Shown: in pieces, positions 1-16,459 of the stretch
Numbering within the stretch: the stretch's first letter is position 1
Layout of the letters: every line of letters begins with the position of its first letter
NCBI GenBank assembly: GCA_037380845.1
Contig: JARRRI010000061.1
Location: 1 to 16,459, forward strand
Reading direction: 5' to 3'
Length of the DNA stretch: 16,459 bases
Origin: Candidatus Sulfobium sp.
Lineage (GTDB): Bacteria; Nitrospirota; Thermodesulfovibrionia; Thermodesulfovibrionales; UBA6898
Translations under genes and position numbers: made by a program
The notes under the pieces: generated by a model
What the model saw: the letters and a program-made list of their open reading frames with translations, nothing else
What the model was told of the DNA's origin: nothing
The model's database searches: none

Positions 1-1395
1 ATAGACCAGCTTCTAGGATCAGGGAACACCTTCTGGGTAAATTCTTCAAATCACACCCTTATTGAAGTTTTCTGCGGTTTAATCGCCATCATTATTGGTC
101 TGATATTGTCCTGGGAATATCTGGTTTCGGGGAAAAAGAATATTCTTTTTCTTGTTTATGCACTCTTTTCCATGGGTATCTTTGACTTCTTTCATGCTTT
201 TTCTGATTACTGTCACAATCTCTTCGTGTGGTTCCATTCTTCCGGCGCTTTTTGGGGCGCCGCTCTTATGTTCTCTTCAACATTTTTCATCAGCCGTGAA
301 ATCGGAAACAAAAAGTCAAAAATTTGGACGAGACGATTTCATATATTATTGGGTATCGGGTTGGTCCTTCTTTATGCGCTGCTGTCCATGAAATATTATC
401 TTTTAATTCCCGATGTCCTTCGAATGAAACTGCCGCATCATACTCATATAACTTTAGTAAAGGGACATTTCAGCGATTTTATCTATATCTTCAATTTCTC
501 CGCGTGCTTATTCTTTTTATTTTCCGGCTTCTTTTTCATTAAAGGTTTTCTGAAATCAAACGATGTCATTTATTTAATTTTCGGATTAACTGCCCTGCTC
601 CTGTTTGAAAGTGAGATTTCTTTCACGATCTCAAACTTATGGGATTTTATGTGGTGGTACTGGCACTTCATCAAAGTCATTGTTTTTTCAGGTCTGTTGC
701 TGGGACTTGCCTATGGATTCGCACGTTCTTTTTATAATCTTGACAAGTCAAAAATGGCATTATCGACGCTGCTTAAAGAAATAGAACATAAAAATGTTGA
801 AATCATGAAAGCATACGATAGATTAAAGGAGACACAGAGATATCTGAGCGAGTCGGAAAAACTTGCCTCTATAGGCAAGATTGCGGCATCAATGGCGCAT
901 GAAATAAGAAATCCATTAGGAGCAATCACAAATTCTCTTGAAGTTCTGAAGAAATACGGCTCTGCAAGCGTAGAAGATGCCGAATTATTTGAAATTCTTG
1001 ATAAAGAAATAGACCGGCTGAACAAGCTGGTAGAGGATTTTCTGAGTTATTCCAGGCCATCCAGACTGAACGTGCAGAAGACAGATATAAATGGGCTGAT
1101 TGGCGAAACGCTTAAGGTTTTTAAAATGAACGAAAAGACCAGGGGGTTGATCATCAGAGAAATATTTACTTATCCCATCCCTCTTGTTCAAATCGATAAT
1201 CATAAAATAAAGCAGGTTTTGTTAAATATCTTCTTTAATGCTCTTCAGGCGATGCCGGCCGGGAAAGGTGTCTTATCTGTACAGACAAAATATAAAAAAA
1301 CGGAAAATGAAGCAGAAATAAATATTACTGATACAGGAACCGGAATGTCTGACGACATTCTGGCCAGAGTTTTTGAACCTTTTTTTGCCCGTTAA
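1..1395 (+). CDS. Membrane sensor histidine kinase (MASE3-like multi-TM N-terminus, HisKA, HATPase_c); 5' end outside the window; C-terminus truncated (probable pseudogene or assembly lesion)
   Basis: Frame is open from base 1 (IDQLLGSGNTFWVNSSNHTLIEVFCGLIAIIIGLILSW...), so 106 is not the true start. Several TM helices carry HxxxE, DxxH and WxH motifs typical of MASE3. H-box AHEIRNPL, N-box QVLLNIFFNALQAM, G1 DTGTGM and F-box FEPFF are present; a stop follows 2 codons later and there is no G2 box (GxGLGL). Confidence 0.9.
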   Translation: MDQLLGSGNTFWVNSSNHTLIEVFCGLIAIIIGLILSWEYLVSGKKNILFLVYALFSMGIFDFFHAFSDYCHNLFVWFHSSGAFWGAALMFSSTFFISREIGNKKSKIWTRRFHILLGIGLVLLYALLSMKYYLLIPDVLRMKLPHHTHITLVKGHFSDFIYIFNFSACLFFLFSGFFFIKGFLKSNDVIYLIFGLTALLLFESEISFTISNLWDFMWWYWHFIKVIVFSGLLLGLAYGFARSFYNLDKSKMALSTLLKEIEHKNVEIMKAYDRLKETQRYLSESEKLASIGKIAASMAHEIRNPLGAITNSLEVLKKYGSASVEDAELFEILDKEIDRLNKLVEDFLSYSRPSRLNVQKTDINGLIGETLKVFKMNEKTRGLIIREIFTYPIPLVQIDNHKIKQVLLNIFFNALQAMPAGKGVLSVQTKYKKTENEAEINITDTGTGMSDDILARVFEPFFAR

Positions 1396-1457: not shown

Positions 1458-2819
1458 GTGGCAGAAAAGAAAACAAATATTATGGTTATCGACGATCAGG
1501 ATGGCATGAGAAGAAGTCTTGCCATCTTGCTCAGAAGAGCCGACTTTCACGTTACAGAGGCCGAAAACGGCGAGGCGGCTATTTCGCATCTTCACCGTAC
1601 GACCTTTGATGTCGTTATTACTGACCTGAAAATGTCGCCTGGTACAGGTATGGATGTGCTGTACTATATCAAAGAAAAGCACCCCCTGACTGAAGTGATA
1701 ATTATGACAGGGTACGGCACCATAGATTCGGCGGTTCTGGCGATGAAAATGAAGGCTTATGATTACATAGCGAAGCCTTTCAAACATGAAGAACTCATTC
1801 ACAGAGTGAGAAAAGCCGTGAATCATCTGGAAACCAAGAAAGAAATGGCGGAAATGCATTCCATTGGGAAGAGAAATGGTAGATTTATGTATATAAAGGG
1901 GACCAGCCAGGCAATTCAAGACTTGACATCATTATGCGACAGGATCGCACGAGTCGATCTGCCTGTACTTATAACCGGGGAAACGGGAACTGGAAAGAAT
2001 CTTATTGCAAAGACAATACACGGCTTAAGCTCCCGGTCTGAAAAACCTTTGATTTCAGTTAATTGCGCTGCCGTTCCTGAATATCTGCTTGAAAGTGAAC
2101 TCTTCGGTCACGCAAAGGGCGCTTTTACAGGAGCTCTGATGGACAGAAGAGGTTTGTTTGAGGAAGCGGAAGGAGGCTCATTGCTTCTTGACGAAATAGG
2201 GAGTATGCCGATCACGATGCAGGCAAAGTTGCTCGATGTTCTTCAGGAACGCATGATCCGTCAGGTTGGAAGCAACAAGACAAAAAAAGTTGATGTCAGA
2301 ATTATGGCTGCGACTAATACTGACCTCGAGCGGGCCGTTCTGGACGGCAATTTCCGTGAAGACCTCTATTACAGGATAAAAGTCACACATATTCATATTC
2401 CTCCTCTGAGAGAACATTCCGAAGATATTCCCATTCTCGTCCGGCATTTCCTCGACCTGTGCAGGCAGGAATTCTCCCGGCTTGATTTAACGTTTACGCC
2501 TGAGGCAATCTCTTTGCTGTCATCGTATGACTACCCGGGCAATATCAGAGAGCTTTCTAACATTGTATCCAGCGCAGCCGCAATTTCTCGGGATGCCACC
2601 ATAACTTCGCAGGACCTCGCATTAAGCTTTACGAACAAATTATTTGAAATGTCCGCAGGCTCAGATCAGGAAAGCCCTCCTGAAACTCTTGATGAATGGG
2701 AAAAGGACCTCATTATGAAGAGTATAAAGAAACATGATCAGAATCTTTCAAAAGTCAGTGCTGAATTAGGGATCGGCAGGACCACGCTCTGGAGAAAAAT
2801 GAAGAAGTATAATATTTAA
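1458..2819 (+). CDS. NtrC-family sigma54-dependent response regulator (REC, AAA+, Fis-type HTH)
   Basis: Receiver motifs VIDDQ, ITDLKM, MTGY and KPF; Walker A GETGTGK; ESELFGH; GAFTGA; Walker B LLLDEIG; FREDLYYR; PGNIREL; C-terminal HTH SAELGIGRTTLWRKMKKY. Confidence 0.97.
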   Translation: MAEKKTNIMVIDDQDGMRRSLAILLRRADFHVTEAENGEAAISHLHRTTFDVVITDLKMSPGTGMDVLYYIKEKHPLTEVIIMTGYGTIDSAVLAMKMKAYDYIAKPFKHEELIHRVRKAVNHLETKKEMAEMHSIGKRNGRFMYIKGTSQAIQDLTSLCDRIARVDLPVLITGETGTGKNLIAKTIHGLSSRSEKPLISVNCAAVPEYLLESELFGHAKGAFTGALMDRRGLFEEAEGGSLLLDEIGSMPITMQAKLLDVLQERMIRQVGSNKTKKVDVRIMAATNTDLERAVLDGNFREDLYYRIKVTHIHIPPLREHSEDIPILVRHFLDLCRQEFSRLDLTFTPEAISLLSSYDYPGNIRELSNIVSSAAAISRDATITSQDLALSFTNKLFEMSAGSDQESPPETLDEWEKDLIMKSIKKHDQNLSKVSAELGIGRTTLWRKMKKYNI

Positions 2820-3110: not shown

Positions 3111-3848
3111 CTAACGTAAACTGCTCTCGTATCTCCCTTTTAAAATAATGTTTCCTCTCTGAATCAATTTCTTTAACCGTCCGAGTGTAGTTCCAATTCC
3201 CTCTGACGCTTTACCGCCGTCCAAATATGCTCTCAGGGCATTGTTGAACTGATTATAGAACTCCTCATCCAAATGAATGAAATCATTATTATCTCCGTCA
3301 GATAAGTTGTCGGCATTTCTGCTGCCCATGATTGTGAATAGTTCATCCCACTGCAATTTCGCGTTGTATAACGATAGACGCACTTGATCCTCTTCCAATA
3401 ATTCCGGTGTGATGCAATCGTCGCGAAATGTCCTGATATGCTCAAGTAAACCCTCTAAATCCGGATAGCATCTCCGCGTAAGCAATAACAACTGCTGTAC
3501 CGCGGCTACAGACCATATGAAATCTGAAGAAATATCCCCTTTTAAATAGAGTATTGCCGCATTATTGAAATATTTTGCAAACTCTCTGTTCTGTACCAAA
3601 TAATCATTCCATTCTATATAAGAGATCAGGTTACTCTTTCTCCTTTCCGTGACAGCCGCTGTAACTGCATCCCAATATTTTTGCGAATGATGAAGGAAAG
3701 AACGTATTTCCCGCCCCCCGGTTTGTCGGATACAGGCATAATCTTTCTGCCCGGCAATCACGGCGGCATTTCTTCCACCGTTTTGCAAGGACGCACATGA
3801 TGTCAGGTTTGCTATTAACAATCCAAACAAGAGTAAATTCAGTTTCAT
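3111..3848 (-). CDS. Hypothetical lipoprotein
   Basis: 245-aa ORF with signal peptide and lipobox (MKLNLLLFGLLIANLTS-C). No family recognised and no clear Shine-Dalgarno. Confidence 0.7.
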   Translation of the reverse strand: MKLNLLLFGLLIANLTSCASLQNGGRNAAVIAGQKDYACIRQTGGREIRSFLHHSQKYWDAVTAAVTERRKSNLISYIEWNDYLVQNREFAKYFNNAAILYLKGDISSDFIWSVAAVQQLLLLTRRCYPDLEGLLEHIRTFRDDCITPELLEEDQVRLSLYNAKLQWDELFTIMGSRNADNLSDGDNNDFIHLDEEFYNQFNNALRAYLDGGKASEGIGTTLGRLKKLIQRGNIILKGRYESSLR

Positions 3849-4084: not shown

Positions 4085-4615
4085 TCACATTCCCTCTCTA
4101 AGAGTCCATTTGTCGCTCTCCGGGGTTATCCAATAAAGTTTTTCTCCGGAAAGGGTGCGGCCGGCTCTTGCTCCGCAGAGGACATCCAGTTTATATGAAA
4201 ACCTCAAATTAATTTCACCAAAGCCGTTGAGGTAAAGAGACGGGGTATCCCTGTCGATCTCCACTAGACTGTTTACGGCCAATTCCCGGCCCGGCGGCAG
4301 GGAAGAGTTTCCGCCGTCCGGGAATACACCGTCCCGATCGTGCATCAGTTTGATCCATTGACCGAGAGCTTCAGCCTGAGCAAAGAACTCCCTCGTGAAC
4401 CCCGTGAGAACGACCCTGGCTTTGGATATATTCTTGAGCGATAATGTGATCTTATAAGTTCCGCCTCCCTGATAGGAAATGTTCTTAATTCCAACATTCA
4501 CGCAACTGGAGTTCGTGCCATACCCGTAATTAGCCCGGGGGCAAATCAGCAGTGCCATAATGAAGCCGGCACATAAAATCGAATACCTGGCAATTTTGAT
4601 TTTCATCTTTTGCAT
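4085..4615 (-). CDS. Exported hypothetical protein; paralog of 15976..16459 and distant paralog of 6143..6730 and 5553..6104
   Basis: N-terminal signal or TM segment; motif Y-x7-N-x-S-x15-Q-x6-W; C-terminus LYWITPESDKWTLRE versus LYWIIPGTDHWMLRE in the paralog; AGGAG upstream. Confidence 0.8.
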   Translation of the reverse strand: MQKMKIKIARYSILCAGFIMALLICPRANYGYGTNSSCVNVGIKNISYQGGGTYKITLSLKNISKARVVLTGFTREFFAQAEALGQWIKLMHDRDGVFPDGGNSSLPPGRELAVNSLVEIDRDTPSLYLNGFGEINLRFSYKLDVLCGARAGRTLSGEKLYWITPESDKWTLREGM

Positions 4616-4682: not shown

Positions 4683-5090
4683 TTATTTGACGTCGACAGT
4701 AATGACTGCCGTGTCTTCCTTATTGCCATCATTTATACGGATATAAACTTCCCACTCGCCCGGCATGGTGAAATTCAGCCTTTCAATGAGATACCGATCT
4801 TTCCCCTTTTCCTTTATCACCGGCGCTTCACTTGAGCCATGCTGGTGGACCGGCATCCACGGCGCCGCTTCTATCTTCAGCTTTCCTCCGCCGGCCGCAC
4901 CCGTTTTCTTATCGACAACCGACAGTTCCATGGCATTCCTTCCCACTTTTACGCTGTCCGGAACTTCAACGGAAATATCGAACACACCGTTTTCCGTCGT
5001 TGCCTGAATTTTCTTGAAGCCCGTGAGGAAAAAGCCGCTGACCAGAATGGTCCCAACACAGACTATATACCTAAACCTCTTCTTATCCAT
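4683..5090 (-). CDS. YtkA/FixH-like exported protein, putative copper chaperone
   Basis: Hydrophobic N-terminus; KVGRN, WMPVHQHGS and RY...LNFTMPGEWEVYI match the YtkA-like pattern. Start moved to ATG 5090 because AGGAGG lies 7 nt upstream. Confidence 0.8.
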   Translation of the reverse strand: MDKKRFRYIVCVGTILVSGFFLTGFKKIQATTENGVFDISVEVPDSVKVGRNAMELSVVDKKTGAAGGGKLKIEAAPWMPVHQHGSSEAPVIKEKGKDRYLIERLNFTMPGEWEVYIRINDGNKEDTAVITVDVK

Positions 5091-5120
5091 TAGCAACCTC
5101 CTCAAGATGACGCAGCGGTA

Positions 5121-5537
5121 TCATTGTCCAACAACGCTGACATCGACAACCGCGGAATCCTCCCTATTTCCGTTCTTTATTTTAATGTAAACTTCCCAAT
5201 CTCCGGCAGCGTCAAATCTAATATTTTCAATCGAGTACACTCCTTCTCCCTTGTATTTAATGACCGGCACCCCCGTGATGGCATGCACATTAGTCGGCAT
5301 CCAAGGAATAACTTCCAATTCAAGTTTCTTATTTACCGGCTCATTTGATTTCCTGTCATAGAAAATCAGTCTCATGGTATTCCTTCCCGTTTTAATGGGG
5401 CTGGTTAGAAATTCTGCAGAAACGATATAATTCCCCTGTTCCGATTCAGTCCTGCTGTTTTGAAAACCGAAAAGAAAAGGCCCGATCAGAAACAGGAAAA
5501 CCAGGGTTATCGTTCGTCTCAAGAGATACATATTCAT
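5121..5537 (-). CDS. Second YtkA/FixH-like exported protein
   Basis: KTGRN, WMPTNVHA and GVY...IRFDAAGDWEVYI; clear tandem paralog of 4683..5090. AGGAGG lies 8 nt upstream of ATG 5537. Confidence 0.78.
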   Translation of the reverse strand: MNMYLLRRTITLVFLFLIGPFLFGFQNSRTESEQGNYIVSAEFLTSPIKTGRNTMRLIFYDRKSNEPVNKKLELEVIPWMPTNVHAITGVPVIKYKGEGVYSIENIRFDAAGDWEVYIKIKNGNREDSAVVDVSVVGQ

Positions 5538-5552
5538 TAACAATACCTCCTG

Positions 5553-6104
5553 TCAGTGGGGCGGCATCGGGATCACGATAGGGACTTTGTTATCAGCGAA
5601 ATCGACCTGCGCCAAAATGTCCGCGTCCGTCATAAAAAAAGGCTTTAAATAAACGTATACATCCGTATACCTCTCAACAACCTCTTCCTCCTTAAAGGCA
5701 CTCTCGGGCAGGACGAATAAAGAACTATGAAGTTTCACCTGCATATAACCATCCATCAGTTACTAGGCATATGTGAGGTTGCGGTCTATGGCCCCGCGAT
5801 AGTGATAGAGGCGCGCTGTGACCCGGGGATGCGTCACATAAACAGGTTCATCAGATACATTGTCTACTTTGATCACTGCTTCATATTTCTCCGGCTGTTT
5901 TTTTATATCCCATGCATCATGTATATCGGGAAACACCATAAAAAAAGCAAGTTTTTCCAGACGCTCTTTTTTCTCCTTTTTTTCTCTGATGATCTGATCC
6001 TGCTTGTACCCTACATAATAATCGGCCAAGAAAACCGCGCAGAGAACCGCCATGATTATAATTATCGTCTTTTTCTTCTTTCTTAATGCTCCTGGCAGTT
6101 TCAT
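5553..6104 (-). pseudogene. Disrupted membrane-anchored ABC-accessory protein ending IPMPPH (ORFs 5763..6104 and 5553..5756 are one gene)
   Basis: Both ORFs share one frame and are separated by TAG TAA (5765-5760). RNLTYA**LMDGYMQV is colinear with RDLPYNEYLIRKYMHV of the adjacent paralog. About 33 codons are also missing near 5811-5816 relative to that paralog. Confidence 0.8.
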
Positions 6105-6142: not shown

Positions 6143-6730
6143 TTATCTGTTGATTTTTGTCTCATTCCAGTTCCTGAATGCCGTAATCGGCATGTAAAAG
6201 GGGACTTTCGTTTCTCCGAAATCTATAACTTTCCTGATCTCCTGATCACTCAGATAATAAGGCTTCAGGTAGACATATGACGACGACCTCCTCTCTACAA
6301 CTTCACCCTCCTTGAAACCGCTTTCAGGCACCACATACATAAAAATATAAAAATGGACATGCATATATTTTCTTATCAGATATTCGTTATAGGGCAAATC
6401 GCGACTAATCCTGACGTATTTCTTGAAGAGGCTCTGGTCTTCCGGCTCAATCTTATGGACCTGCTCTTCCTCTTTGTTTTCGTCGTCCTTTACGGGGACC
6501 TCGGTCCAGGAAATACTTCCCGTCTGGACAAATGCTTTCACTACAGGAGGCGATATATAGATAGCCTCGTCAGAGACATTGTCTGTCCTCAACCAGACTT
6601 CATATTCCTCGGTCATTTCAATATCCCTGGTGGGTCTGATGTCCCGGATATCGGCAGAGAGCATATAAAAAGCCTTTGTCTCCAGATCTCTGATCCTCGC
6701 GGATGAACCAACCGCTAATGCCCTGATATC
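6143..6730 (-). CDS. ABC-accessory exported-type domain, N-terminally truncated (no TM anchor; first in-frame ATG at 6664)
   Basis: Paralog of 5553..6104 (DNVSDE, PESxFKExEVVER, YVYLKP, KVP). Homology continues upstream of the ATG (RIRDLETKAFYM versus KKERLEKLAFFM), and the frame is open to 6730 without a canonical start. Confidence 0.7.
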   Translation of the reverse strand, partial: DIRALAVGSSARIRDLETKAFYMLSADIRDIRPTRDIEMTEEYEVWLRTDNVSDEAIYISPPVVKAFVQTGSISWTEVPVKDDENKEEEQVHKIEPEDQSLFKKYVRISRDLPYNEYLIRKYMHVHFYIFMYVVPESGFKEGEVVERRSSSYVYLKPYYLSDQEIRKVIDFGETKVPFYMPITAFRNWNETKINR

Positions 6731-7368
6731 TCAATATCATGGGTAGAATATAAAATAGTAATCCCCTTCTCTTCGGTGAGTTTCCTGAAGGTTTGTATTA
6801 CAAAAAGCCTGTTTTCCCTGTCGAGATTAGCGGTCGGCTCATCCGCAAGGATCATCAAGGGATGTGTTATCAAGGCACGCGCGATAGCCAGTCTCTGATT
6901 CTCCCCGCCGCTTAATTGAGTCGGCATATGATATATCCGGTGACCCAAACCGAGGGATTTAATCGTTTCTATCGCCTCCTCCTTGAGATTTCTGTTATTG
7001 CTCCTGGGCTTCCAGAAATTAAAAGGCAAAAGGGTGTTTTCAAGAACGTTAAGCATACGCAGAGGCTTTGCGTCCTGAAAAATAAAGCTGAATTTTTCCC
7101 TCCTGAAATTGACGAGTTTTTCCTCTGAAAGGGTATCTATCCTGACGCCTTCCAGATAAACCTCGCCGGTCGTAGGTTTGTCAAGGGCACCCAGTATGTT
7201 CAGCAATGTGGTCTTACCGGACCCGCTGGGACCGACAAGGGCAATAAGTCCGCCCTTATCTATATTCAAATTGATTCCATCGAGAGCCTTAACCTCTGAT
7301 GCTCCGGTAAAAAAAGACTTCCCTACATTATGCAATGCCAGGAAATGCTTGCTATCGCCGCTCGACAT
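6715..7368 (-). CDS. ABC transporter ATP-binding protein (LolD/MacB-like), apparently C-terminally truncated
   Basis: Walker A GPSGSGKT, Q-loop FIFQ, signature LSGGE, Walker B ILADEPTANLD and H-loop STHD. It stops shortly after the H-loop and lacks the terminal 'xxxMxDG' strands present in paralog 9834..10562. Confidence 0.9.
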   Translation of the reverse strand: MSSGDSKHFLALHNVGKSFFTGASEVKALDGINLNIDKGGLIALVGPSGSGKTTLLNILGALDKPTTGEVYLEGVRIDTLSEEKLVNFRREKFSFIFQDAKPLRMLNVLENTLLPFNFWKPRSNNRNLKEEAIETIKSLGLGHRIYHMPTQLSGGENQRLAIARALITHPLMILADEPTANLDRENRLFVIQTFRKLTEEKGITILYSTHDIEISGH

Positions 7369-7372: not shown

Positions 7373-8563
7373 CTATACCTCCCACTGCGTTCTAAAGGTT
7401 TCGGTTATTTTTATGCTGGATAATTTGTAGGTTGGATAAAAGCTTGCGACCAGACTGCAGAATACACCGACCAGTAAAGCGATAAGGAGGAACTGAGGCT
7501 TGGCACTTATAGCCGCTCCGATTTTCAGGAAAAAGGCATCAAGGAGATATGATGAAATTAAACCGATAAGGTAGCCGATAATGCCGCCTGATATTCCCAC
7601 AATAACGTATTCGTAGAGAAATATTATCAAAAGTTGAGTTCTCGAAGCACCCACCGACTTCAACATGCCGATTTCCTTTACCCTCGAATATAGAAGGTTG
7701 GTGACGATGTTAAATATTGAGAATATACTTACTGCGATCGTGGCAATTGCAATCGACAGGAGAAATCTGAACGTTTTCTTCAGTAAAATATACTTCATCG
7801 TGCTGAACTGCTGGGGAGAGAGGGCCTTTATATTGGGGATGCTGTTATTTAATTGATCCGTTACTGAAGTCAATAATTTCTTGTCTCTGTCCAACGAAGA
7901 ACTCTGGACATTTACGACCGACATAAGGCCTTCTCTGTCAAAAAGCTTCTGGGCAACCGAAAAAGGTAAAAAGACCATATAATCTTCGGCTGCATTGGTC
8001 GGTCTCAGCAGACCTACAATCTTGAATTCTCGATTGTTTACCATGATTTTTTCGCCAACAATCAAACTTTTCTCTTTTGCATATGTTCCGCCCAGTACTG
8101 TTTCGTCATATGCGGCAGGCCATGTCCCGCTATCGAGATTCCACGAAGATCGCGCCTCCAATTCTTTCTTGAAATCGATGCCTGCTACAACAGCTTCCAA
8201 TCGCTTTGTTCGGTACCGGATGTCGGCTTTCTGGTAAATCCTGGGAGTAATAAGAACTGCCGGGTTCTTCCCGGAAATATTCTGCTTGATGATTCCCTCT
8301 ACGTCAGCAATAACAGAAACCGGGATGTATTCATTAAGAATGACCCCTATCTGATCTAGGCTCGCCGGTTGAATATTCTTTGGCTGAACCATCAGGGTGA
8401 ATCCAAATTTGGATGCCAGGTTTGTGAGAAAACTATCGGCGTTGTCAAGAGTCAAAACTATTGTGCTGAGGATAGCAACAGGGATGGCAACAGCTATCAA
8501 TACGTAAAGTGTTTTTCCTTTTCTTCTGGTCAAATCCTTTGTTGCCATCGAAAAAAGCTTCAC
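7373..8563 (-). CDS. ABC transporter permease, MacB/FtsX/LolE family
   Basis: One N-terminal TM, a large periplasmic domain and three C-terminal TMs; RVKEIGMLKSVGAS motif; GTG start with GGGAGG SD. Confidence 0.93.
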   Translation of the reverse strand: MKLFSMATKDLTRRKGKTLYVLIAVAIPVAILSTIVLTLDNADSFLTNLASKFGFTLMVQPKNIQPASLDQIGVILNEYIPVSVIADVEGIIKQNISGKNPAVLITPRIYQKADIRYRTKRLEAVVAGIDFKKELEARSSWNLDSGTWPAAYDETVLGGTYAKEKSLIVGEKIMVNNREFKIVGLLRPTNAAEDYMVFLPFSVAQKLFDREGLMSVVNVQSSSLDRDKKLLTSVTDQLNNSIPNIKALSPQQFSTMKYILLKKTFRFLLSIAIATIAVSIFSIFNIVTNLLYSRVKEIGMLKSVGASRTQLLIIFLYEYVIVGISGGIIGYLIGLISSYLLDAFFLKIGAAISAKPQFLLIALLVGVFCSLVASFYPTYKLSSIKITETFRTQWEV

Positions 8564-8564: not shown

Positions 8565-9830
8565 TCAAACCTCCCACTGAGTTCTAAAGGTCTCGGTGAT
8601 CTTTATCCTTGATAGTTTATAAGCAGGATAAAAAATGGCGACCAGGCTGCATACGACGCCAAGCGACAGGGCGATCCAGAAATACTGGGTGCTGATTCTA
8701 ATGATCGCTCCGATGTCCAATAGAGAATTCAGGATATAAGCCATTCCTACGCCGGCGAGGAAACCGACGGAACCCCCAAGCAGACCGAGGATAAGATGCT
8801 GATAAAGAAACAATCTGAGAAGCTGAAATCTCGATGCGCCTACTGACTTTAAAAGTCCGATCTCCTTAACGCGCGAGTAGAGGGCGCCGGTAACCGTATT
8901 AAAAATCGAGAAAAAGCCCACGGCCAGCGTCGCCAGAACTATCGAAAGCAGAAACTTATAAAGCATATTAAAGAACTCAAATTGAACTTCTGCAATGTTT
9001 AGCTGAGAAACTGATGTAATTCCGGTGACTTTCTTATTCAATTCAACCATCGCGTCACCAACGGGGCATTTCGGGCACATGGCCCTGACGCTGAGCAGGG
9101 ATACAAATCCTTCCTTATTAAAGATTTTTTGAGCGGTCCCGAGGGGAATAAATACCATATAATCGTCAGCGGAATTTGTTTCCTGCAACACTCCGACGAC
9201 ATTAAATTTCTTATTTTTTACCGTGACCGAACTGCCGGCTGTCAATCCCTTAACACTGGCGAATGTTCCGCCGAGCACCGCTTCGTCTTCTCTGGCCTTC
9301 CTAAGCCGATTTGAGTCTTCAGGCCATGTCCCACTGGATAGGTCCCACCAGAATCTGACGAAATATTCCTTATAGAAATCAACCCCTGCCACTATTGTCT
9401 GTATACCGTCAACATCAGTCTTCTCATAAAGCCGAGGAGCCCACGTAGGAGGCTGTATACTTATCTCGCCAATACCCGGTCTTGAAACCAGGCCGCCCTT
9501 CTTTTCCCATCCCGTTTTTATCGCTTCATCGTAGATTTTTGCTATATGCGGGACCGCTGATTCAGGGATATATTGCCCCAGGACCACATCTGACGATGAC
9601 ACAGTTCCGGGACTTACATTATCTCCCTTATTGCCTGAGACACCGGCCGGCCGTACCGTTAAGGTATGTCCAGTCCGTGTAATAACTTCCAGTATGGTAG
9701 TGTTGGCGGAATCACTGACTATTGAAAGTGACGTGAGCAGGGCAACTGCAATGACTATGGCCAGAACAATTAATCCATTCCTTCCGGGCCTCCTGATCAA
9801 CTCTATGAGAGCAACCTTCAATATTCCCAT
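8565..9830 (-). CDS. ABC transporter permease, MacB/FtsX/LolE family, with periplasmic CxxC
   Basis: Same topology; RVKEIGLLKSVGAS motif; RAMCPKCP in the extracytoplasmic domain. Confidence 0.93.
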   Translation of the reverse strand: MGILKVALIELIRRPGRNGLIVLAIVIAVALLTSLSIVSDSANTTILEVITRTGHTLTVRPAGVSGNKGDNVSPGTVSSSDVVLGQYIPESAVPHIAKIYDEAIKTGWEKKGGLVSRPGIGEISIQPPTWAPRLYEKTDVDGIQTIVAGVDFYKEYFVRFWWDLSSGTWPEDSNRLRKAREDEAVLGGTFASVKGLTAGSSVTVKNKKFNVVGVLQETNSADDYMVFIPLGTAQKIFNKEGFVSLLSVRAMCPKCPVGDAMVELNKKVTGITSVSQLNIAEVQFEFFNMLYKFLLSIVLATLAVGFFSIFNTVTGALYSRVKEIGLLKSVGASRFQLLRLFLYQHLILGLLGGSVGFLAGVGMAYILNSLLDIGAIIRISTQYFWIALSLGVVCSLVAIFYPAYKLSRIKITETFRTQWEV

Positions 9831-9833: not shown

Positions 9834-10562
9834 TCAGCATCCTCCCATCAACAGCGTAACCGGATCAGCTACATTCTCATACAGCACACCGTCCTTCATA
9901 ACAAAGACCTTTTTTGCCTTTTCTATCCATGCCAGTGTATGGCTGACAACTATCACAGTTTTTTTATACTCTTCGTTAATATGGCGAAATATTTCTATTA
10001 CTTCCTGCTCCGTTCTGATATCCAGTTCCCCTGTAGGTTCATCAGCGAGAATTATATCGGGGTCATTCATAAGGGCGCGCACAATAGCCACTCTTCTCTG
10101 TTCACCTCCCGAAAGTTCCGAGGGGAAAGCGGCGACCTTTTCTACCATATCAAGCTCGCGCAGCATAGAGACGGCTTTTTCCCTGATTTTATCCCGGTCT
10201 TTCTTCCCGCCGTTGGCAAATATCAGGGGCATGACAATATTGTTCATTACGTCGAGAGATGGCAAAAGACTGAAGGATTGAAAACAGAATCCTATTTTTT
10301 TGTTTCTGAATTTGGATATAGCCTTATCATCGTGGCTCCATATATCGACTCCCTCAATTCGGACTGTCCCACCCGTAGGTTTTGTAAGACCGCCTATCAC
10401 GCTGACCAGAGTCGTCTTGCCCGACCCGGAATGGCCCATGAAGACCGCAAAATCAGACTCTTCGATGTCAAGATTTATCCCTTTCAGCGCCTCCACGTGC
10501 TGCTCTCCCACGTGATAAATCTTAGTCAAATCCCTTACCTCAATAAATGATCCCATCATCAC
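9834..10562 (-). CDS. ABC transporter ATP-binding protein (LolD/MacB-like)
   Basis: Walker A GHSGSGKT, FCFQ, LSGGEQRR, ILADEPTG, H-loop VSH and terminal VMKDG. The start overlaps the upstream permease stop. Confidence 0.96.
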   Translation of the reverse strand: MMMGSFIEVRDLTKIYHVGEQHVEALKGINLDIEESDFAVFMGHSGSGKTTLVSVIGGLTKPTGGTVRIEGVDIWSHDDKAISKFRNKKIGFCFQSFSLLPSLDVMNNIVMPLIFANGGKKDRDKIREKAVSMLRELDMVEKVAAFPSELSGGEQRRVAIVRALMNDPDIILADEPTGELDIRTEQEVIEIFRHINEEYKKTVIVVSHTLAWIEKAKKVFVMKDGVLYENVADPVTLLMGGC

Positions 10563-11776
10563 AGCCCCTGCTTCATGGTTTCATGAGGATCTATCTTTAC
10601 AGCGATGAAGGCCGGATATGTGGACCCGGTGATTCCCATCAGCAGAGCGATCGCGATTGCGCCGGCGGCAAGTATGACTATAAGTTCCGGCGGGGGCAGC
10701 ATGAAGGGGATATTGAGAAGCTTAAGATAAAAAACAATCGATCTTTGAAACAGTTTAAGCATTATACCTCCGATCAGCATGCCGATAAGGCCGCTGATCA
10801 CGCTTATCATGGTAGATTCGTAAAGGACAAGCTTAAATATTGCGGCCTTGGTCGCACCGATCGCTCTGATGATCCCTATTTCCCTTTTCCTCTCATTAAC
10901 TACGGCAGAAAATATAGCATTGATCATGAGAATATTAGACATGACAAGAACAACAATCAATGCGATGATTCCGGAAAAAACCGCGACAGTTGTCTGCCGG
11001 GCAGACGTTTGAATATTGCCGGTAGTAACGACTTTGAGATTAGGATTGTCCCTGAGAATGGAAAATGTTATAAACGGTATTTTTGCTCCGACTGCCAGTT
11101 GGACGAGTACACCCGATATTTTGCCGTTAATCGGCTGCAGCGGTTGAATCGATGGATCCGACCGCGATTTCTCGGACATTTCATAAGCTTTATCCAAATC
11201 AAAAAAGATGGCGTTATCATATAATCCGATGCCGGTCCTTTCCAGTTTCCCCCAGACTCTCAGGTTTACTCCATAAAATCTTATACTATCACCCACATTC
11301 CACATGGTCATAGCGCCGATAATTGCCCCGTCTTTTGGAAACTCTTCTTTTTTGCTCTTTTTTTCGACCCATGGAAGAACAGTAAAATCATCAGAGGGAT
11401 CGAACCCGATTAAGAAAGAATTACCGGTAATACAGCATTCCCCGGTTGCGCTCGTAAGGAAGATCTGAGCAGACGCTCTCTTGACGCCCTTTAACGAGCG
11501 GACTTCCTCCACGACAGATTTGTTCATATAAAAAGCGGACGGCTCCCCCGTAAGTAAGGCCGATTTCAGGTTGACCAATGATTCCTTGGGGATTACCAGA
11601 ATGTCAGCTCCAAGTTTCGAGAGGCCTTTATCCAGGCTATGATGGATTCCTATTATGAGTATGGAACTGGCGAACAAGGCCCCTATGACCATACTCACAC
11701 CGAAAAGTATGATATAAAATCTTAACTGTTTAACCTGAAGGTTCTGATAAGCCAGTCTGAATAACGATAAGACCAT
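10559..11776 (-). CDS. ABC transporter permease, MacB/FtsX family, with periplasmic CC motif
   Basis: LGADILV, ERKREIGIIRAIGA, 1+3 TM topology and GECCIT motif. Start placed at ATG 11776 (MVLSLFRLAYQNL, GGAG upstream) because the 11872 ATG lies inside an inverted repeat. Confidence 0.92.
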   Translation of the reverse strand: MVLSLFRLAYQNLQVKQLRFYIILFGVSMVIGALFASSILIIGIHHSLDKGLSKLGADILVIPKESLVNLKSALLTGEPSAFYMNKSVVEEVRSLKGVKRASAQIFLTSATGECCITGNSFLIGFDPSDDFTVLPWVEKKSKKEEFPKDGAIIGAMTMWNVGDSIRFYGVNLRVWGKLERTGIGLYDNAIFFDLDKAYEMSEKSRSDPSIQPLQPINGKISGVLVQLAVGAKIPFITFSILRDNPNLKVVTTGNIQTSARQTTVAVFSGIIALIVVLVMSNILMINAIFSAVVNERKREIGIIRAIGATKAAIFKLVLYESTMISVISGLIGMLIGGIMLKLFQRSIVFYLKLLNIPFMLPPPELIVILAAGAIAIALLMGITGSTYPAFIAVKIDPHETMKQGL

Positions 11777-11844
11777 CAGCTGATCATCTCCAATTGTTCT
11801 TAATGTCTTTTGAGTCTTCCCGCCGGACTCGTAACTAAAAGATC

Positions 11845-11878
11845 TTCTCCATGATGGAGGAGCCTCCATCATGGAGAA
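11845..11878 (-). terminator. Perfect 16-bp inverted repeat after tcdh (terminator-like or mRNA-stabilising hairpin)
   Basis: TTCTCCATGATGGAGG-AG-CCTCCATCATGGAGAA, about 33 nt past the tcdh stop. On the minus strand it is followed only by a weak U-tract (GATCTTTT). Confidence 0.6.
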
Positions 11879-11910
11879 ATTTGAAGATTCAGTTCATGTT
11901 CAGCCGTTCT

Positions 11911-13455
11911 TTATGTAGTCGGACATCTCGAAATCGAAAGTTCCTTTTTATTCCGTGGCACGATTACGGAATCGTGATGACCATACGGACTCGGCAGATA
12001 ACCGTAGAACTTGTCGTCCTTGACGCGCACTACATAGGTACCGGTATTGGTCTTCTGATATCCGCTATAGACGCCAAAGAGCCACTTGCCGTCACCGGTA
12101 CAGGCGATCGTATGAGTATCGGGACCGATTTCAATCACTTTCGTTATCTTCCAGGATCGCGTATCAACAACGGCTATCGAATTTTTAGTCGGAGGTGGCC
12201 ACCAGAGAGTAACGTACATCTTGCTGACGTCAGGAGTAAACGCCATATGGAAGGGGTTAGGATACGCGCCTCTCCAGCTCCGGTCTCCTACTCCTGCGAC
12301 CCTTTTCCAACTCGTAGGATCATTTTGGTTGGAAGAATCGAACACCGCCATTATGTTCTCTCTGCTGTTGTTCATTAGGACAAAGAAATTGCCGTCCGGA
12401 CTGTAGCCGGCCTGATGTGCCGGTGTCGGCACATTCTTAAATTTGGCTTCCCATTCCCCGTTGCCCACTTTCCGCAGGGGTATCTGAAAGTCTATTTTGG
12501 CCTGCTTGTCAGAGCCAACGACAACAGCCTTTGGTTCCCACGTCCTCGTATCGAAGACGACACCAGCACCGAGTAATCTGAGGGCGGCTATACCGTACCT
12601 TTCGTGATTCGGGTCCCACCCAAGAGAATCAAGTGCAACGACGTTCTTCAGCTTGTGACCCGGCACCTTGCCCTGCTCGGCAAAGAGTTCGCCACCCGGA
12701 ACAAGCTCCCAATCGATCTTGATCCCCTTGGTACCTTTCAGGTCATAGGGAGGGCTTAACTTCTTGATTGTGAGAGTGCCGCCGTCGATCCATGCCCTCG
12801 AGAGCTCGGAATTATTGTATTCCCAGTTAAAGGCGACAAGGGCTTCGACTGACGAAGGATTTGTCCCTTTCCCCCTTCTGAAAATACCCATCAGATCCTT
12901 CTGACCGTCGCACACGGCAAACCTTTCATTGTCAGGAGCAGCCGTAACATGCACGCCAAGACCTACCCCTGTTGTTTCTGCGACGTCCTCCTGTATTTCC
13001 ATCTTGCTTCCATCGTACTTAACCCTCCAGATGTTAAACCCTTCCGCAGGATCCTTGACCGGCGTCGTAACGCCATAAATATACAGGTTCTTCCCGCCCT
13101 GGGAATCCACTATATACTCGAATTCCTTATAGGGATCTGGAGAATGGAACGCCGCAAGATGGTGCACTATAGGTGTCTTATTGCCGGCTGAAATGGCCAT
13201 ATTGATCCATGCCATACATTCGCCCGTGGACATATCATATGCACCAACGCCGCCGGCAAATTTGCCCGGGACCAGATGAACATACTTGCCAATCTGGTCA
13301 TAGACGTCCTGAAAAGTGGGATCACTGAAGATGCCGGCTTCAGCCTCTCGCGCCCGGAATAATGAACCCAGTCCGAGTTTCGAGCCGATTCCAACTCCAG
13401 CCGCAGCTGTGCCGGCAATCCCGGCCTTCAACAAACCACGCCTCGAAATTCCCAT
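11911..13455 (-). CDS. tcdh: Thiocyanate dehydrogenase (TcDH, thiocyanate desulfurase)-family Tat-exported tri-copper beta-propeller enzyme
   Basis: Tat signal SRRGLLK...AEA (cleavage near residue 40). Colinear with the Thioalkalivibrio paradoxus TcDH sequence as I recall it: YDQxGKY, PGKF, HHxAAFxSPDPYKEFE, QGGKNL, GLGVHVT, DGQKD, KIDWELVPGGEL, HQAG, WRGAYPNxFHM, WWP, GPDxHT, SGYQ, LPSPxGHHD. AGGAGGT SD. Confidence 0.92.
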   Translation of the reverse strand: MGISRRGLLKAGIAGTAAAGVGIGSKLGLGSLFRAREAEAGIFSDPTFQDVYDQIGKYVHLVPGKFAGGVGAYDMSTGECMAWINMAISAGNKTPIVHHLAAFHSPDPYKEFEYIVDSQGGKNLYIYGVTTPVKDPAEGFNIWRVKYDGSKMEIQEDVAETTGVGLGVHVTAAPDNERFAVCDGQKDLMGIFRRGKGTNPSSVEALVAFNWEYNNSELSRAWIDGGTLTIKKLSPPYDLKGTKGIKIDWELVPGGELFAEQGKVPGHKLKNVVALDSLGWDPNHERYGIAALRLLGAGVVFDTRTWEPKAVVVGSDKQAKIDFQIPLRKVGNGEWEAKFKNVPTPAHQAGYSPDGNFFVLMNNSRENIMAVFDSSNQNDPTSWKRVAGVGDRSWRGAYPNPFHMAFTPDVSKMYVTLWWPPPTKNSIAVVDTRSWKITKVIEIGPDTHTIACTGDGKWLFGVYSGYQKTNTGTYVVRVKDDKFYGYLPSPYGHHDSVIVPRNKKELSISRCPTT

Positions 13456-13553
13456 TTAAATACCTCCTTTCCTGCAAATTACTTTCCGCCTTGAAACATC
13501 CCCTCAACTCTTTTCTGCAAGCAGCCTCCTTTCTTTCGAGATATGCATATCAT

Positions 13554-13569
13554 TTCAAATTACATGCCC
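13554..13569 (-). promoter_or_regulatory. Putative sigma54 (-24/-12) promoter of the tcdh operon
   Basis: Minus strand GGGCATGTAATTTGAA = GG-N10-GA versus consensus TGGCACG-N4-TTGC. Spacing is correct with a non-consensus A at -12; about 100 nt upstream of the ATG. Confidence 0.6.
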
Positions 13570-13584
13570 GGATCCTGTATCGCT

Positions 13585-13597
13585 CCATTGTTTGATT
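13585..13597 (-). promoter_or_regulatory. IHF-like site
   Basis: AATCAAACAATGG has one mismatch to WATCAANNNNTTR, has an upstream A-tract, and lies between the sigma54 site and the enhancer palindromes. Confidence 0.4.
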
Positions 13598-13632
13598 TAA
13601 AAGGATTTTTTTGAGAGTGTACACACTCGGCT

Positions 13633-13682
13633 TTGTTCATTGCGAAACATGAGTCAGTTCCATTTGTTTCATTATGAAAACA
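13633..13682. promoter_or_regulatory. Pair of putative enhancer (UAS) palindromes for a sigma54 activator
   Basis: TTGTTCA-TTG-CGAAACA (13633-13649) and TGTTTCA-TTA-TGAAAAC (13665-13681); shared consensus TGTTTCA-N3-TGAAACA; centres 32 bp apart. Confidence 0.6.
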
Positions 13683-14314: not shown

Positions 14315-15766
14315 TCAGAATTTGAAAGTCAGTTCCAGGAAAGAGTAGTCTCCTTCAGAGCCATCAGGAAATGTCTTTTTTACGACATCTCCTCCCCACA
14401 TATGGGAGTAATAGAAATAGAGGCTAAGGTTCCTGCTGAGATTGTAAAAGAAGTGGCCGCCTGCCATCGTCCCAATGTTATCCTCTCCCTGGCTGGGCCT
14501 CCCGGTGAAGCCGAATACGGACCTTGATGTGGCGCCGGAGCCGAAATACCACCTGTCTCTGGAATTGTTCAGACCGACGAAATTCAAATCCAGCTTGACG
14601 GTCGTTTTGGGAGAAGGCTTCAGTATAAGCATTGCAAAAAGGTCCTCTATGTTCATGTAATTGTAATAAGCCGGGGTATTGGACTGCTTCCGCACAGTGG
14701 GAAGAAGCTGGAAGAAGGTTCCATGGTCATTGTCATTGGGATTGTCATCTCCGGATGAAACGAAATAGCCGGCCCTCACCCAGGGTTTAAGCGGCACATC
14801 GAGAAACTGGTATCCCAGTTCGGCGTTCCATGCCCATGACTTCTGGTCCAAACTGCCCCATGTGCCCCTCTGGACGGCTCCCCACAGGATGAGGTCCATC
14901 TCCCCTTTTTCGGACGGTCTGTATACGGAAGCAAGATGGAAGCCCAGTGTGTTTATCCTTATATCTCCCCTGTCAAGCGGTGAGCCGGCGGGCTGATTGT
15001 CCGCTTTTGTCAGGCCCCGGTCGTCTTCATAGTAGATATAAAAGAGTCTCGTGTCGCTGTAGGGTACTACCCCCTTTTTAAGGGTCAATGCCAGGTAGGC
15101 GGCATCTATCTCCCTTATCTCCGTCTGGCCGTTCTTTTCGAAACCGCCCTGCGTCGGGTGAAATGCAGCGGCTGTGACGTTGACGGAGGCACTGTCATAC
15201 GTTCCCACTCCGCCGTCGAAGCTCCTCTGGAAGGAGGACCAGCCGAAGGGGCCTATAAGCCTTTCCGAAATCCTTACTTTCTTAAGCCAGTTCATCTTGC
15301 GGTCGTCTTTATAAAGCACTTCCTCTCCATCGAAGAAGGTCAGCCTGCCGGCCTTGAGCGTAAAGGGCGCAAATTTCAGCTTCACATTTGCCTGCCTTAT
15401 GTAGGTCGAGGAAGGATTCTCCTCCCGGTCATGGATAAAGTATATCGCTCCGCCGCCGAGGACCCCCTGCGGCGGAGGGGCAATGGCATCATCGGGCAGC
15501 CCGAACATGTTTACATTCTGAAGCTGCAGAAAGGCGTCCAGATGATTCGATTCAAACTTCACTCCCAGCTTTGTGCGTGTGAACTCATAGAAATAGTCAT
15601 TATTGAAAGGTCCGGCAGGCTCAAAGAAATTCCAGTATTCCACCCTGCCCGTAACTTCACCTGAAAGCGATAATTTCGTCCCGTGATTACCGTAAAGAGT
15701 GACGTCGGCCGATACAGCCGTCCCCCAAAAAAGCACAAAACACAAACCTGCAATCAATCTTTTCAT
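14315..15766 (-). CDS. Outer-membrane beta-barrel porin, alginate export (AlgE)-like family
   Basis: Sec signal (…TAVSA), amphipathic aromatic-rich strands, KAGR, ERLIGPFGWS..QRSFDG, SSGDDNPNDNDHGTFFQLLPT and C-terminal LELTFKF with terminal Phe; GGGGAG SD. Confidence 0.85.
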   Translation of the reverse strand: MKRLIAGLCFVLFWGTAVSADVTLYGNHGTKLSLSGEVTGRVEYWNFFEPAGPFNNDYFYEFTRTKLGVKFESNHLDAFLQLQNVNMFGLPDDAIAPPPQGVLGGGAIYFIHDREENPSSTYIRQANVKLKFAPFTLKAGRLTFFDGEEVLYKDDRKMNWLKKVRISERLIGPFGWSSFQRSFDGGVGTYDSASVNVTAAAFHPTQGGFEKNGQTEIREIDAAYLALTLKKGVVPYSDTRLFYIYYEDDRGLTKADNQPAGSPLDRGDIRINTLGFHLASVYRPSEKGEMDLILWGAVQRGTWGSLDQKSWAWNAELGYQFLDVPLKPWVRAGYFVSSGDDNPNDNDHGTFFQLLPTVRKQSNTPAYYNYMNIEDLFAMLILKPSPKTTVKLDLNFVGLNNSRDRWYFGSGATSRSVFGFTGRPSQGEDNIGTMAGGHFFYNLSRNLSLYFYYSHMWGGDVVKKTFPDGSEGDYSFLELTFKF

Positions 15767-15975: not shown

Positions 15976-16459
15976 TCACCTTTCTTCTCTCAACATCCAG
16001 TGGTCTGTTCCTGGAATTATCCAATAAAGGTTGTCGCCTGAAATCAACTGCTTTCCAGTTCCGGCAAGTTCAATTCCATACTTAAATTTGAGATTGATAT
16101 CCCCCCGGTAATTCTTGTACAGGTGCGAAATATCCGGCTGGATTTCAATAATGTAAACTATTTCCTTCTGCCCTCCTCGGGCAATCGAAAGGCCCTCAGC
16201 ATGCCCGCGGGGATGGTTTGCAAGGCTAATCCAGTTTCCGAGGACCTCTGTCTGCAGGGAAAACATGGTGTCTATTTTTTTAATGGAAATAACACCTTCC
16301 GAGTAGTTCTTAAGTGAAACTCTAACTTCATACCTGTCGCCACCAAGGAATTTGATACCGCTCACCGTGGCTGTTAAGGGCATGCGCAAATCGGCCGAAC
16401 AAGAAACTTTTGGCGAGTTCATAATAAAAATAAAGCCAAAAAATACCGGTACAAACAAA
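15976..16459 (-). CDS. Exported hypothetical protein, paralog of 4085..4615; 5' end probably outside the window
   Basis: GGDRYEVRVSLKNYS...QTEVLGNWISL...LYKNYRGDINLKFKY...LYWIIP aligns with GGGTYKITLSLKNIS...QAEALGQWIKL...LYLNGFGEINLRFSY...LYWITP. The ORF runs to the window edge. Confidence 0.8.
   Translation of the reverse strand, partial: LFVPVFFGFIFIMNSPKVSCSADLRMPLTATVSGIKFLGGDRYEVRVSLKNYSEGVISIKKIDTMFSLQTEVLGNWISLANHPRGHAEGLSIARGGQKEIVYIIEIQPDISHLYKNYRGDINLKFKYGIELAGTGKQLISGDNLYWIIPGTDHWMLREER

Follow-up and report, generated by a model that had tools for sequence, protein, structure and literature searches.

The 16,459-nt stretch of DNA analysed here (the window) is the first part of a 25,345-nt contig, C61, binned as Candidatus Sulfobium sp. 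of the Thermodesulfovibrionales (Nitrospirota), and it raises the question of whether thiocyanate dehydrogenase (TcDH) is encoded, and could be used, in such a host. To our knowledge, work on TcDH has been confined to a few sulfur oxidisers, all of them aerobic and most of them halo(alkali)philic. The order to which the bin belongs is otherwise known for sulfate reduction, and the lineage is mostly anaerobic. A 514-codon open reading frame (ORF) on the minus strand of the window, at 11911..13455, very probably encodes a true TcDH orthologue (EC 1.8.2.7), predicted to be a seven-bladed propeller with a three-copper site that is exported by the twin-arginine translocation (Tat) pathway, its activity being predicted from the residues and gene order described below.

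The dehydrogenase gene and its branch of the family

On the minus strand, positions 11911-13455 form a single open frame of 514 residues beginning MGISRRGLLK, with a GGAGG ribosome binding site that lies 8 nt upstream of the ATG; on the plus strand this interval has many stops, and that reading was rejected. Residues 4-10 (SRRGLLK) and the hydrophobic stretch that follows have the form of a Tat signal, matched by the Pfam model TAT_signal at E 0.003 with 17.9 bits against a cut-off of 22.7, and the Tat motif published for TcDH is [ST]-R-R-x-F-L-K (PMC5328954; this and the other papers cited by PMC number are represented here by excerpts). Beyond this weak Tat signal, no family model for TcDH was found in Pfam or NCBIfam. 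A phmmer search of all PDB sequences matched nine distinct solved TcDH sequences at E values of 1e-155 to 1e-168, including 8q9x (E 1.2e-168 over residues 48-514) and 5f75, which is named thiocyanate dehydrogenase (E 1.2e-157 over residues 35-514), and the next matches were unrelated propellers at E 2.5e-6 and 0.008. As a sequence match, the similarity to TcDH is far above chance. The PDB entry name of 8q9x is only 'Twin-arginine translocation signal domain-containing protein', and we take it to be the Pelomicrobium methylotrophicum enzyme; 5oex and 6uwe are presumably the enzyme of Thioalkalivibrio paradoxus ARh1. 5F75 is the T. paradoxus ARh1 enzyme (PMC6504805). Relative to these four entries the window protein is likewise similar over its full length, with only small insertions and deletions, and its N-terminal region is shorter than that of the 548-residue Thioalkalivibrio TcDH.

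An earlier note on this DNA had listed K65, H98, H99, H169, E250, D276, H347, H403, H448 and H494 as the counterparts of K103, H135, H136, H206, E288, D314, H381, H437, H482 and H528 of T. paradoxus TcDH. All ten are present in the translation, and the mapping is borne out by alignment with the TcDH of T. thiocyanoxidans ARh2 (548 aa; locus L035), in which each of the ten T. paradoxus numbers meets a residue of the matching type; the offsets between window and T. paradoxus numbers are 38, 37, 37, 37, 38, 38, 34, 34, 34 and 34. A HMMER alignment to PDB 5f75 gives an identical register. The ARh2 alignment has 80 rows, the best 80 of 270 stretches encoding a TcDH relative found when one genome was searched for each of 185,579 species, numbers that agree with the earlier description of TcDH as rare. 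Of the ten residues, nine are conserved in 80 or 79 of the 80 rows, the single miss being a gap, and the tenth column, that of H448, holds His in 28 rows, Gln in 51 and a gap in one.

Thirteen residues have been described as forming the active site, namely Lys103, His135, His136, Gln156, His206, Glu288, Asp314, His381, His437, His482, His528, Asp529 and Arg544 (PMC6504805), and all 13 are kept in the window protein, as K65, H98, H99, Q119, H169, E250, D276, H347, H403, H448, H494, D495 and R510, with Q119, D495 and R510 standing for Q156, D529 and R544, the three that lie beyond the ten first listed. This set, which includes the ligands of the three coppers together with the Lys and Glu residues, is common to the window protein and the solved TcDHs. 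Tyr164, proposed as part of the electron exit path (PMC9456337), has its counterpart in Y127. With a full-length frame and the full catalytic set present, the gene is intact, as the earlier note had supposed.

The gene is also reproduced outside this assembly. Parts of the interval 5400-7500 occur in 16 public sequencing runs, 10 of which contain at least half of its sampled words; every run carries the label marsh or salt-marsh metagenome, and the best-matching ones may include the source sample of the window. Contigs of four public marsh or salt-marsh runs (X1, X4, X9 and X10) were compared with the window. The TcDH sequence recurs in public contigs with 0-5 differences per piece, from runs that span two years; the pieces that bear it cover 6718-12688 and 12664-16459 in X1 and 11075-12937 and 13080-14338 in X9.

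A quick maximum likelihood tree of the 80 rows (LG+G4, with SH-aLRT support only and subject to a warning of long-branch joining) places the window in a clade of 14 rows, apart from the characterised sulfur oxidisers, in agreement with the suggestion that a different lineage is involved. The other 13 rows of this clade (clade I, SH-aLRT 100) are titled Nitrospirota, Nitrospirae, Thermodesulfovibrionales or Thermodesulfovibrio metagenome-assembled genomes (MAGs), and a second Nitrospirota clade of four rows (clade II) adjoins it; the 17 named Nitrospirota rows all lie on one side of a branch with support 95. The branch of the studied enzymes (Thioalkalivibrio, a Pelomicrobium MAG, Sulfuritalea and Burkholderiaceae) is separate from the Nitrospirota rows. 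In a protein search that returned 171 TcDH-family clusters, the closest named sequences were from Nitrospirota MAGs, at 75% identity. Because several clade I copies are located on Nitrospirota contigs as long as 253 kb to 2.06 Mb, assignment of the carrier to the Nitrospirota is safe at the level of the clade. The earlier note was right that the taxonomy of the host cannot be fixed from the window alone, the link to this particular bin being weak (see below).

The H448 column corresponds to the copper ligand His482 and divides the family. His is present in 17 Nitrospirota rows (one further row has a gap), in all 10 rows of the Thioalkalivibrio/Pelomicrobium type and in L031, and the window TcDH is thus on the His-482 side, like the studied enzymes. 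In the mainly alphaproteobacterial branch (L037-L087), Gln replaces the ligand in 51 of 51 rows. Members of that branch include Reyranella, Methylocella, Ancylobacter, Xanthobacteraceae and one Terriglobia MAG, and their loci usually have a single permease-ATPase pair.

The literature searched, which left subscription papers, including the 2020 structure paper, outside its scope, gave no link of TcDH to Nitrospirota or Thermodesulfovibrionales. Papers naming both TcDH and 'Nitrospir...' were considered and set aside, the mentions in the excerpts retrieved concerning nitrifiers, an entry in a reference list or another MAG. A search for 'thiocyanate dehydrogenase' together with Pelomicrobium gave no match, and the term 'thiocyanate desulfurase' was found in use for Afipia. 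Relative to this literature the TcDH lineage is new, whereas the enzyme and its operon are of a known kind.

The operon in its published and its Nitrospirota form

In the published layout, TcDH is followed by four ABC subunits (two permeases and two ATPases), hypothetical proteins and a sigma-54 two-component system (PMC5328954), and the same gene set is induced on thiocyanate in T. thiocyanoxidans, by up to 2^7.5-fold (PMC5744179, Table 1). Behind TcDH in the window, and likewise on the minus strand, are ABC permease 1 (10559..11872; Pfam FtsX in the C-terminal part, E 6e-18, and periplasmic MacB_PCD, E 4e-7), the true start of which is probably ~32 codons inside the longest ORF, its relatives being ~404 aa long; ATPase 1 (9834..10562; 242 aa; Pfam ABC_tran, E 4e-32); permease 2 (8565..9830) and permease 3 (7373..8563), both with Pfam FtsX/MacB_PCD and, at 40% identity, paralogues of each other; and ATPase 2 (6715..7368; 217 aa as assembled; Pfam ABC_tran, E 2e-31). 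Two YtkA-domain proteins follow on the same strand, the first (5121..5543; 140 aa) with an N-terminal hydrophobic segment and a Pfam YtkA match at E 6e-9, and the second (4683..5105; Pfam YtkA, E 5e-10) 40% identical to it. At the far end of the window, on the plus strand and convergent with these genes, are a membrane sensor histidine kinase (1..1395; HisKA, HATPase_c), the 5′ end of which is off the contig, and an NtrC-type sigma-54 activator (1458..2819; Sigma54_activat, E 5e-69, with Response_reg and HTH_8). Pfam therefore confirms the context that had been listed, a porin (described below), five ABC genes comprising three permeases and two ATPases, and two YtkA genes; of the proposed MASE3/NtrC pair, the sigma-54 activator beside a histidine kinase stands, but MASE3 is matched only weakly, at E 4e-5 and 23.7 bits, below the cut-off of 31.

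The earlier note had taken this for a non-canonical, possibly undescribed module, a view that does not hold for the core of the cluster. We compared the window proteins by tblastn with the 80 loci, where some of the misses are due to a contig end within the locus. The gene set and its order behind TcDH are shared by ARh2 (L035), the Pelomicrobium MAG (L029) and most other loci; a homologue of permease 1 is directly behind TcDH in 76 of the 80, and ATPase 1 and ATPase 2 are each syntenic in 75. As the layout is already described in the literature for Thioalkalivibrio and recurs in these related loci, the core of the cluster is a canonical TcDH operon. In the Thioalkalivibrio operon (L035) the window proteins find counterparts in the same order at 26-50% identity, and permease 2 is 37-40% identical to the second permease of the Thioalkalivibrio, Pelomicrobium and Sulfuritalea loci.

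There are also differences from Thioalkalivibrio. The two permease/ATPase pairs behind TcDH are shared, but the window adds a third permease and two or three extra paralogues of an Ig-like protein, and has YtkA-domain proteins in the place of the copCD genes of Thioalkalivibrio. The kinase and activator genes converge with the operon in the window and are co-directional with it in Thioalkalivibrio; the Thioalkalivibrio genes tatA, fccAB and cytochrome c552 have no equivalents near the window TcDH; and upstream of TcDH there is an alginate-export porin rather than a TonB-type receptor. Most of the additions are shared with the closest relatives. Of the 14 clade I loci, 12 have a separate third permease, for which all 66 other loci were negative, and a YtkA gene is present in 11 of 14 clade I loci, three of four in clade II and none of the remaining 62. 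Judged by this recurrence, the third permease, YtkA and the extra Ig-like paralogues are the normal layout of the Nitrospirota form of the operon. The relatives carry one YtkA gene, which both window copies match, and the second YtkA gene is thus particular to this contig, as are the porin and two ORFs, hyp245 and hyp160, described below.

The upstream flanks of three clade I relatives fit, on their gene content, a role in thiocyanate metabolism. L009 has a cyanase gene 1 kb before TcDH (8479-8919), as well as another porin; L010 has CopC, CopD, NosL and redoxins upstream of TcDH (2218-5954); and L012 has TatA, TatA and TatC (8116-9609). None of these flanking genes (cyanase, CopC/CopD/NosL/redoxins, TatA/TatC) is present on the window's contig.

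The operon is likely controlled by the adjacent kinase/activator pair. Homologues of the activator occupy the same convergent position in clade I, at 58-66% identity, and are found behind the operon in Thioalkalivibrio, Sulfuritalea and others at 43-45%; among 10 classic proteobacterial loci, NtrC is present in nine and the kinase in nine. The activator and kinase of L035 are 45% and 31% identical to the window pair, and the identity of the kinase to those of the nine proteobacterial TcDH loci with a match is 27-33%. A candidate sigma-54 -24/-12 element is located on the minus strand at 13554..13569, 114 nt before the TcDH start. A weighted scan of the upstream regions of 13 clade I relatives gave elements of the TGGCAC-N5-TTGC type, which lie between -99 and -173 in 11 of them, those of the other two being at -57 (L016) and -407 (L011); the window element is weaker than those of the relatives but is at the homologous distance. 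A search of the window for the plain sigma-54 consensus was discarded, as it gave seven matches where 11 were expected by chance, none of them before TcDH.

The window also encodes a family of companion proteins. Companion A (hyp173; 6143..6664, minus strand; 173 aa) is an Ig-like beta-sandwich protein with a conserved YMHV motif, and companion B (5556..6104, minus strand) is its membrane-anchored paralogue, ending in MPPH and disrupted as assembled. Companion C (hyp176; 4085..4615, minus strand) is a secreted or anchored, beta-rich protein that ends in WxLREGM and is distantly related to A and B; hyp160 (15976..16458, minus strand), beyond the porin, is a second copy of it. Hyp176 and hyp160 are 35% identical (blastp, E 2e-23), hyp173 and hyp113 are 45% identical over 38 residues, and hhalign aligns the profile of one pair with that of the other at a probability of 96% (E 4e-9, 108 columns). 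The novel four-copy family described in the earlier note is therefore a single superfamily at the profile level, but one that includes the 'hypothetical protein' already noted in the Thioalkalivibrio operon, and two of its four copies are fragments in this assembly. The family has no Pfam or NCBIfam model. An AlphaFold model of hyp173, made from 18 sequences, has a pLDDT of 88.5 and an Ig-like beta-sandwich fold. A fold search with it found only generic Ig-like sandwiches, the best being 2r39, which is FixG-related (E 4e-4, TM 0.34/0.48), and we therefore draw no function from it; a search of the ESM Atlas gave best scores of 0.88 to unnamed clusters, below the level at which the tool is to be trusted.

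In the relatives, A and B are 208-245 aa long (A alone, 221-245 aa) and comprise a membrane anchor at the N-terminus, a charged helix and a sandwich domain that bears the YMHV motif; MPPH forms the C-terminus of B and of the single-copy proteobacterial form. Homologues of A are behind ATPase 2 in 55 of the 80 loci at E<=1e-5, and in 60 with a looser search (E<=1e-4 with at least half of the protein covered), whereas a hyp176-type protein is present in 12 of 18 Nitrospirota loci and none of the 62 others. Judged by position, the counterpart in ARh2 (L035:15191-15934) corresponds to the 'hypothetical protein' with one N-terminal helix, for which induction on thiocyanate is ~2^5-fold (PMC5744179). 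The anchored hypothetical protein behind the ABC genes has homologues in the window, although as assembled A is without its anchor and B is interrupted. In alphaproteobacterial loci the companion domain belongs to longer frames (460-880 aa), the start of which coincides with or precedes the match to ATPase 2 (L039:12586-14121, L055:7164-9437, L057:6838-9471 and similar), which suggests that there the ATPase and the anchored companion protein are fused.

Possible thiocyanate metabolism in the carrier, and the alternatives

The bin (3.18 Mb in 104 contigs, 100% completeness, 1.8% contamination) carries dsrA/dsrB, aprA and three genes of the haem-copper oxidase family, one cbb3-like, one aa3-like and the third beside a c-type cytochrome, with copCD-like genes elsewhere (contig C3). 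The metabolic background is therefore Dsr/Apr, compared with aerobic, Calvin-cycle sulfur oxidation in Thioalkalivibrio. A small ORF after dsrB resembles DsrD only weakly, a direct Pfam scan giving E 0.005, below the cut-off; the DsrD family search of the bin was uninformative, there being no match in the bin and likewise none in the controls. DsrA is present in 39 of 41 genomes sampled (the relatives and the bin) and oxidase-family genes in 33 of the same 41. Whether the oxidases track TcDH was also considered, but they are present in five of five TcDH-positive and in 14 of 20 TcDH-negative genomes of the family and so do not discriminate.

Tentatively, a Dsr/Apr-carrying Nitrospirota of anoxic marsh could draw both sulfur and electrons from thiocyanate by means of TcDH, with the sulfur going to disproportionation or Dsr metabolism and the electrons to a micro-oxic oxidase or to an unknown anaerobic acceptor. 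In the reading that we favour overall, the carrier is a marsh-sediment Nitrospirota of the Thermodesulfovibrionales type, in which the kinase/activator pair would turn the operon on from the sigma-54 promoter and apo-TcDH would be exported by Tat to the periplasm. There the MacB-type ABC machine, the anchored Ig-like proteins and the YtkA proteins would load copper into the apo-enzyme, and TcDH would then convert SCN- and water to cyanate, zero-valent sulfur and two electrons. Conversion to cyanate and sulfur, with electron transfer to a periplasmic cytochrome, is the mechanism as summarised in PMC9456337. The electrons would most likely pass via periplasmic c-type cytochromes to one of the haem-copper oxidases of the bin under low oxygen, and the sulfur would enter Dsr/Apr metabolism. 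The alginate-export-type barrel may admit the anion, which is speculation, its association with the operon not being conserved.

The copper-loading role of the helpers is one that we infer from NosDFY and NosL of nitrous oxide reductase. As far as the excerpts on the Nos system go, in both systems the gene of a copper propeller enzyme exported by Tat is accompanied by those of an ABC system, and both have small periplasmic or membrane-anchored proteins with motifs of a metal-binding type; a NosL gene is present upstream of TcDH in the relative L010. The ABC parts of the TcDH operon are, however, of the MacB/FtsX type and unrelated in family to NosDFY, and the TcDH system, unlike Nos, is without a NosD-like protein and without a CuA domain, so that the parallel is one of analogy and makes no claim of membership. 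A YtkA domain is implicated in the assembly of a copper centre in Bacillus subtilis, where it is fused to CopC-CopD (PMC13344008), and YtkA plausibly takes the place that copCD has in Thioalkalivibrio. Across phyla, TcDH is accompanied by the MacB-type ABC machine and by the anchored Ig-like proteins ending in MPPH, and these are the best candidates for the builder of its three-copper site.

If the tentative proposal, of a Dsr/Apr-carrying Nitrospirota that draws sulfur and electrons from thiocyanate, is correct, this would be the first TcDH-based thiocyanate metabolism outside the aerobic proteobacterial sulfur oxidisers, and an unrecognised sink of thiocyanate and source of cyanate in sediments. 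TcDH and its helper operon are present in ~5% of the genomes of the order and are abundant in several marsh metagenome runs, and thiocyanate turnover with release of cyanate may also occur in oxygen-poor sediments. A number of observations weigh against thiocyanate use by this host, and those that bear on a particular alternative are given with it. Neither NrfA nor a true NarG was found in the bin, the matches to NarG being weak, partial and below the cut-off, two of them with one TGA, and there is therefore no obvious anaerobic acceptor of high potential. The candidate sigma-54 element has the GG of -24, but its -12 reads TTGA and not TTGC. Two molybdopterin-oxidoreductase-like frames of the bin (C29:36765-37283 and C13:49286-49789), with one in-frame TGA apiece, may be selenocysteine-containing enzymes of the formate dehydrogenase type.

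The first alternative is that C61 is misbinned, the carrier being another Nitrospirota, of lower G+C content, so that the dsr/apr/oxidase background would not be that of the carrier. Among the 70 contigs of at least 10 kb, C61 departs furthest from the bin in composition: its GC is 0.472, where the genome has 0.534, and its tetranucleotide correlation is 0.717, where the median is 0.977, both being the lowest values of the set. A low GC does not mark the operon in general, as in most relatives its GC is near that of its flanks (deviations of 0.04-0.12 being seen in L011, L012, L017 and L018). TcDH is present in 15 of 317 genomes of the order (13 of 122 genera) and in six of 53 other genomes of the family, but in none of the three other genomes of the genus. 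Because C61 is a compositional outlier and the relatives within the genus are without TcDH, the link of the host to the bin is weak, and C61 may be a recent acquisition or a binning error. Yet the nearest copies are all from Nitrospirota, six of them in the same family, in which one genome (G012) holds a fragment that is 94% identical, and much of the remainder of C61 is a giant Ig-repeat gene, of a class that is often atypical in composition. Misbinning is hence a possibility to be taken seriously, if a doubtful one, and as DsrA is present in nearly all of the relatives sampled, the Dsr background holds for any carrier in the order.

Alternatively, the ORF could encode an enzyme of the TcDH family with another substrate or role, such as detoxification, scavenging of nitrogen or sulfur, or conversion of another pseudohalide or sulfur compound. 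The 270 stretches and 171 clusters, many from soil Alphaproteobacteria, make the family wider than a few thiocyanate oxidisers, and one distant member (P0083) is named 'methanethiol oxidase' in the database. The window clade is on a long stem branch in the quick tree, and the window protein is only 49.4% identical to ARh2 TcDH and 52.0% to the TcDH of the Pelomicrobium MAG. Cyanase was not found in the bin by a family search or by tblastn with the L009 cyanase, nor in any of the 41 genomes of the relatives and the bin, by a family search that was positive in only one of 14 control genomes. No dedicated cytochrome was found in the bin, and cytochrome c, fccAB, copCD and tatA were absent by Pfam from the window and also from the rest of C61. 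Against these points, none of the 13 residues listed for the active site and cavity is altered, the operon corresponds to the one that Thioalkalivibrio induces on thiocyanate, a member of the clade (L009) has cyanase next to TcDH, and TcDH-positive Thioalkalivibrio are, according to the excerpt of PMC6504805, likewise without cyanase. Taken together, another substrate appears improbable, and TcDH activity on thiocyanate is the reading that we retain.

The third alternative arises from the state of the helper genes as assembled. The window is ~285-300 nt shorter than its relatives between permease 3 and YtkA. ATPase 2 is without the last 27-29 residues of its relatives (246-247 aa), which align only through residues 12-217 and 6-220 (tblastn), and A starts only at the end of the helix, with stops just upstream, and has no N-terminal anchor. 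In B, ~31 aa are missing internally after residue 97, two stops follow one another in frame (TAG TAA, 5759-5764) and the conserved His of the YMHV motif is replaced by Gln; the similarity of B stays in the same frame to the C-terminal MPPH, residues 2-219 of a relative matching 6116-5556 (tblastn). The public contigs differ at several of these places. One contig each of X1 and X4 joins 6700 to 6718 with 244 letters where the window has 17, and contig ends are loose at 6700 in X9 and X10 and, in X10, also at 6718; X1 and X4 have a joint at 5813/5814, exactly at the internal gap of B, and public contig pieces end at 5724, near its stops. As the public contigs differ from the window both at 6700-6718 and at the gap in B, the most likely cause of these two lesions is a collapse of paralogous genes during assembly, or else a minority variant. 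That the operon is decaying, with TcDH open but its helper genes broken and no active enzyme in the strain, would fit these defects and the patchy occurrence of TcDH, a pattern of gain and loss, but it is very unlikely, given that at least two lesions are most likely such collapses and that TcDH itself is without defect and differs by 0-5 letters per contig piece.

Other features of the contig

Upstream of TcDH on the minus strand, an outer-membrane beta-barrel of the alginate-export family is encoded at 14315..15766 (Pfam Alginate_exp, E 1e-29), 860 nt from the TcDH gene. No homologue of this porin was found in the 80 related loci; the arrangement is also present in the X1 contig piece 12664-16459. 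The intervening 13456-14314 is an unusually long non-coding gap of 860 nt, and the only ORF in it, of 86 aa (13712-13972), has no family match. Behind companion C, hyp245 (3111..3848, minus strand) has a lipoprotein-like N-terminus (LTSC) and no Pfam or NCBIfam match, and a homologue is present in one of the 80 loci (L011, 33%). At 3111, the end of hyp245, all four public runs have a joint with 35 other letters. Taken with the differences at 6700-6718 and 5813/5814, this makes misassembly of the window at repeats of paralogous genes probable.

At 100-666, in the sensor part of the kinase, the X1, X4 and X10 contigs that cover it depart from the window at 30-45 positions and have three additional letters at 315; elsewhere the window is almost the same as they are. 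This divergence may reflect a second strain or a variable sensor domain. Beyond the window, C61 17096-25345 (minus strand; L102:1097-9346) is occupied by one giant ORF of at least 2749 aa that is open at the end of the contig. Its domains are Ig-like, CARDB, fibronectin-III, PD40 and discoidin-type, giving it the character of a surface or adhesin-like protein, and counterparts with 35-47% identity are present in two of five genomes, one from the same genus and one from the same family.

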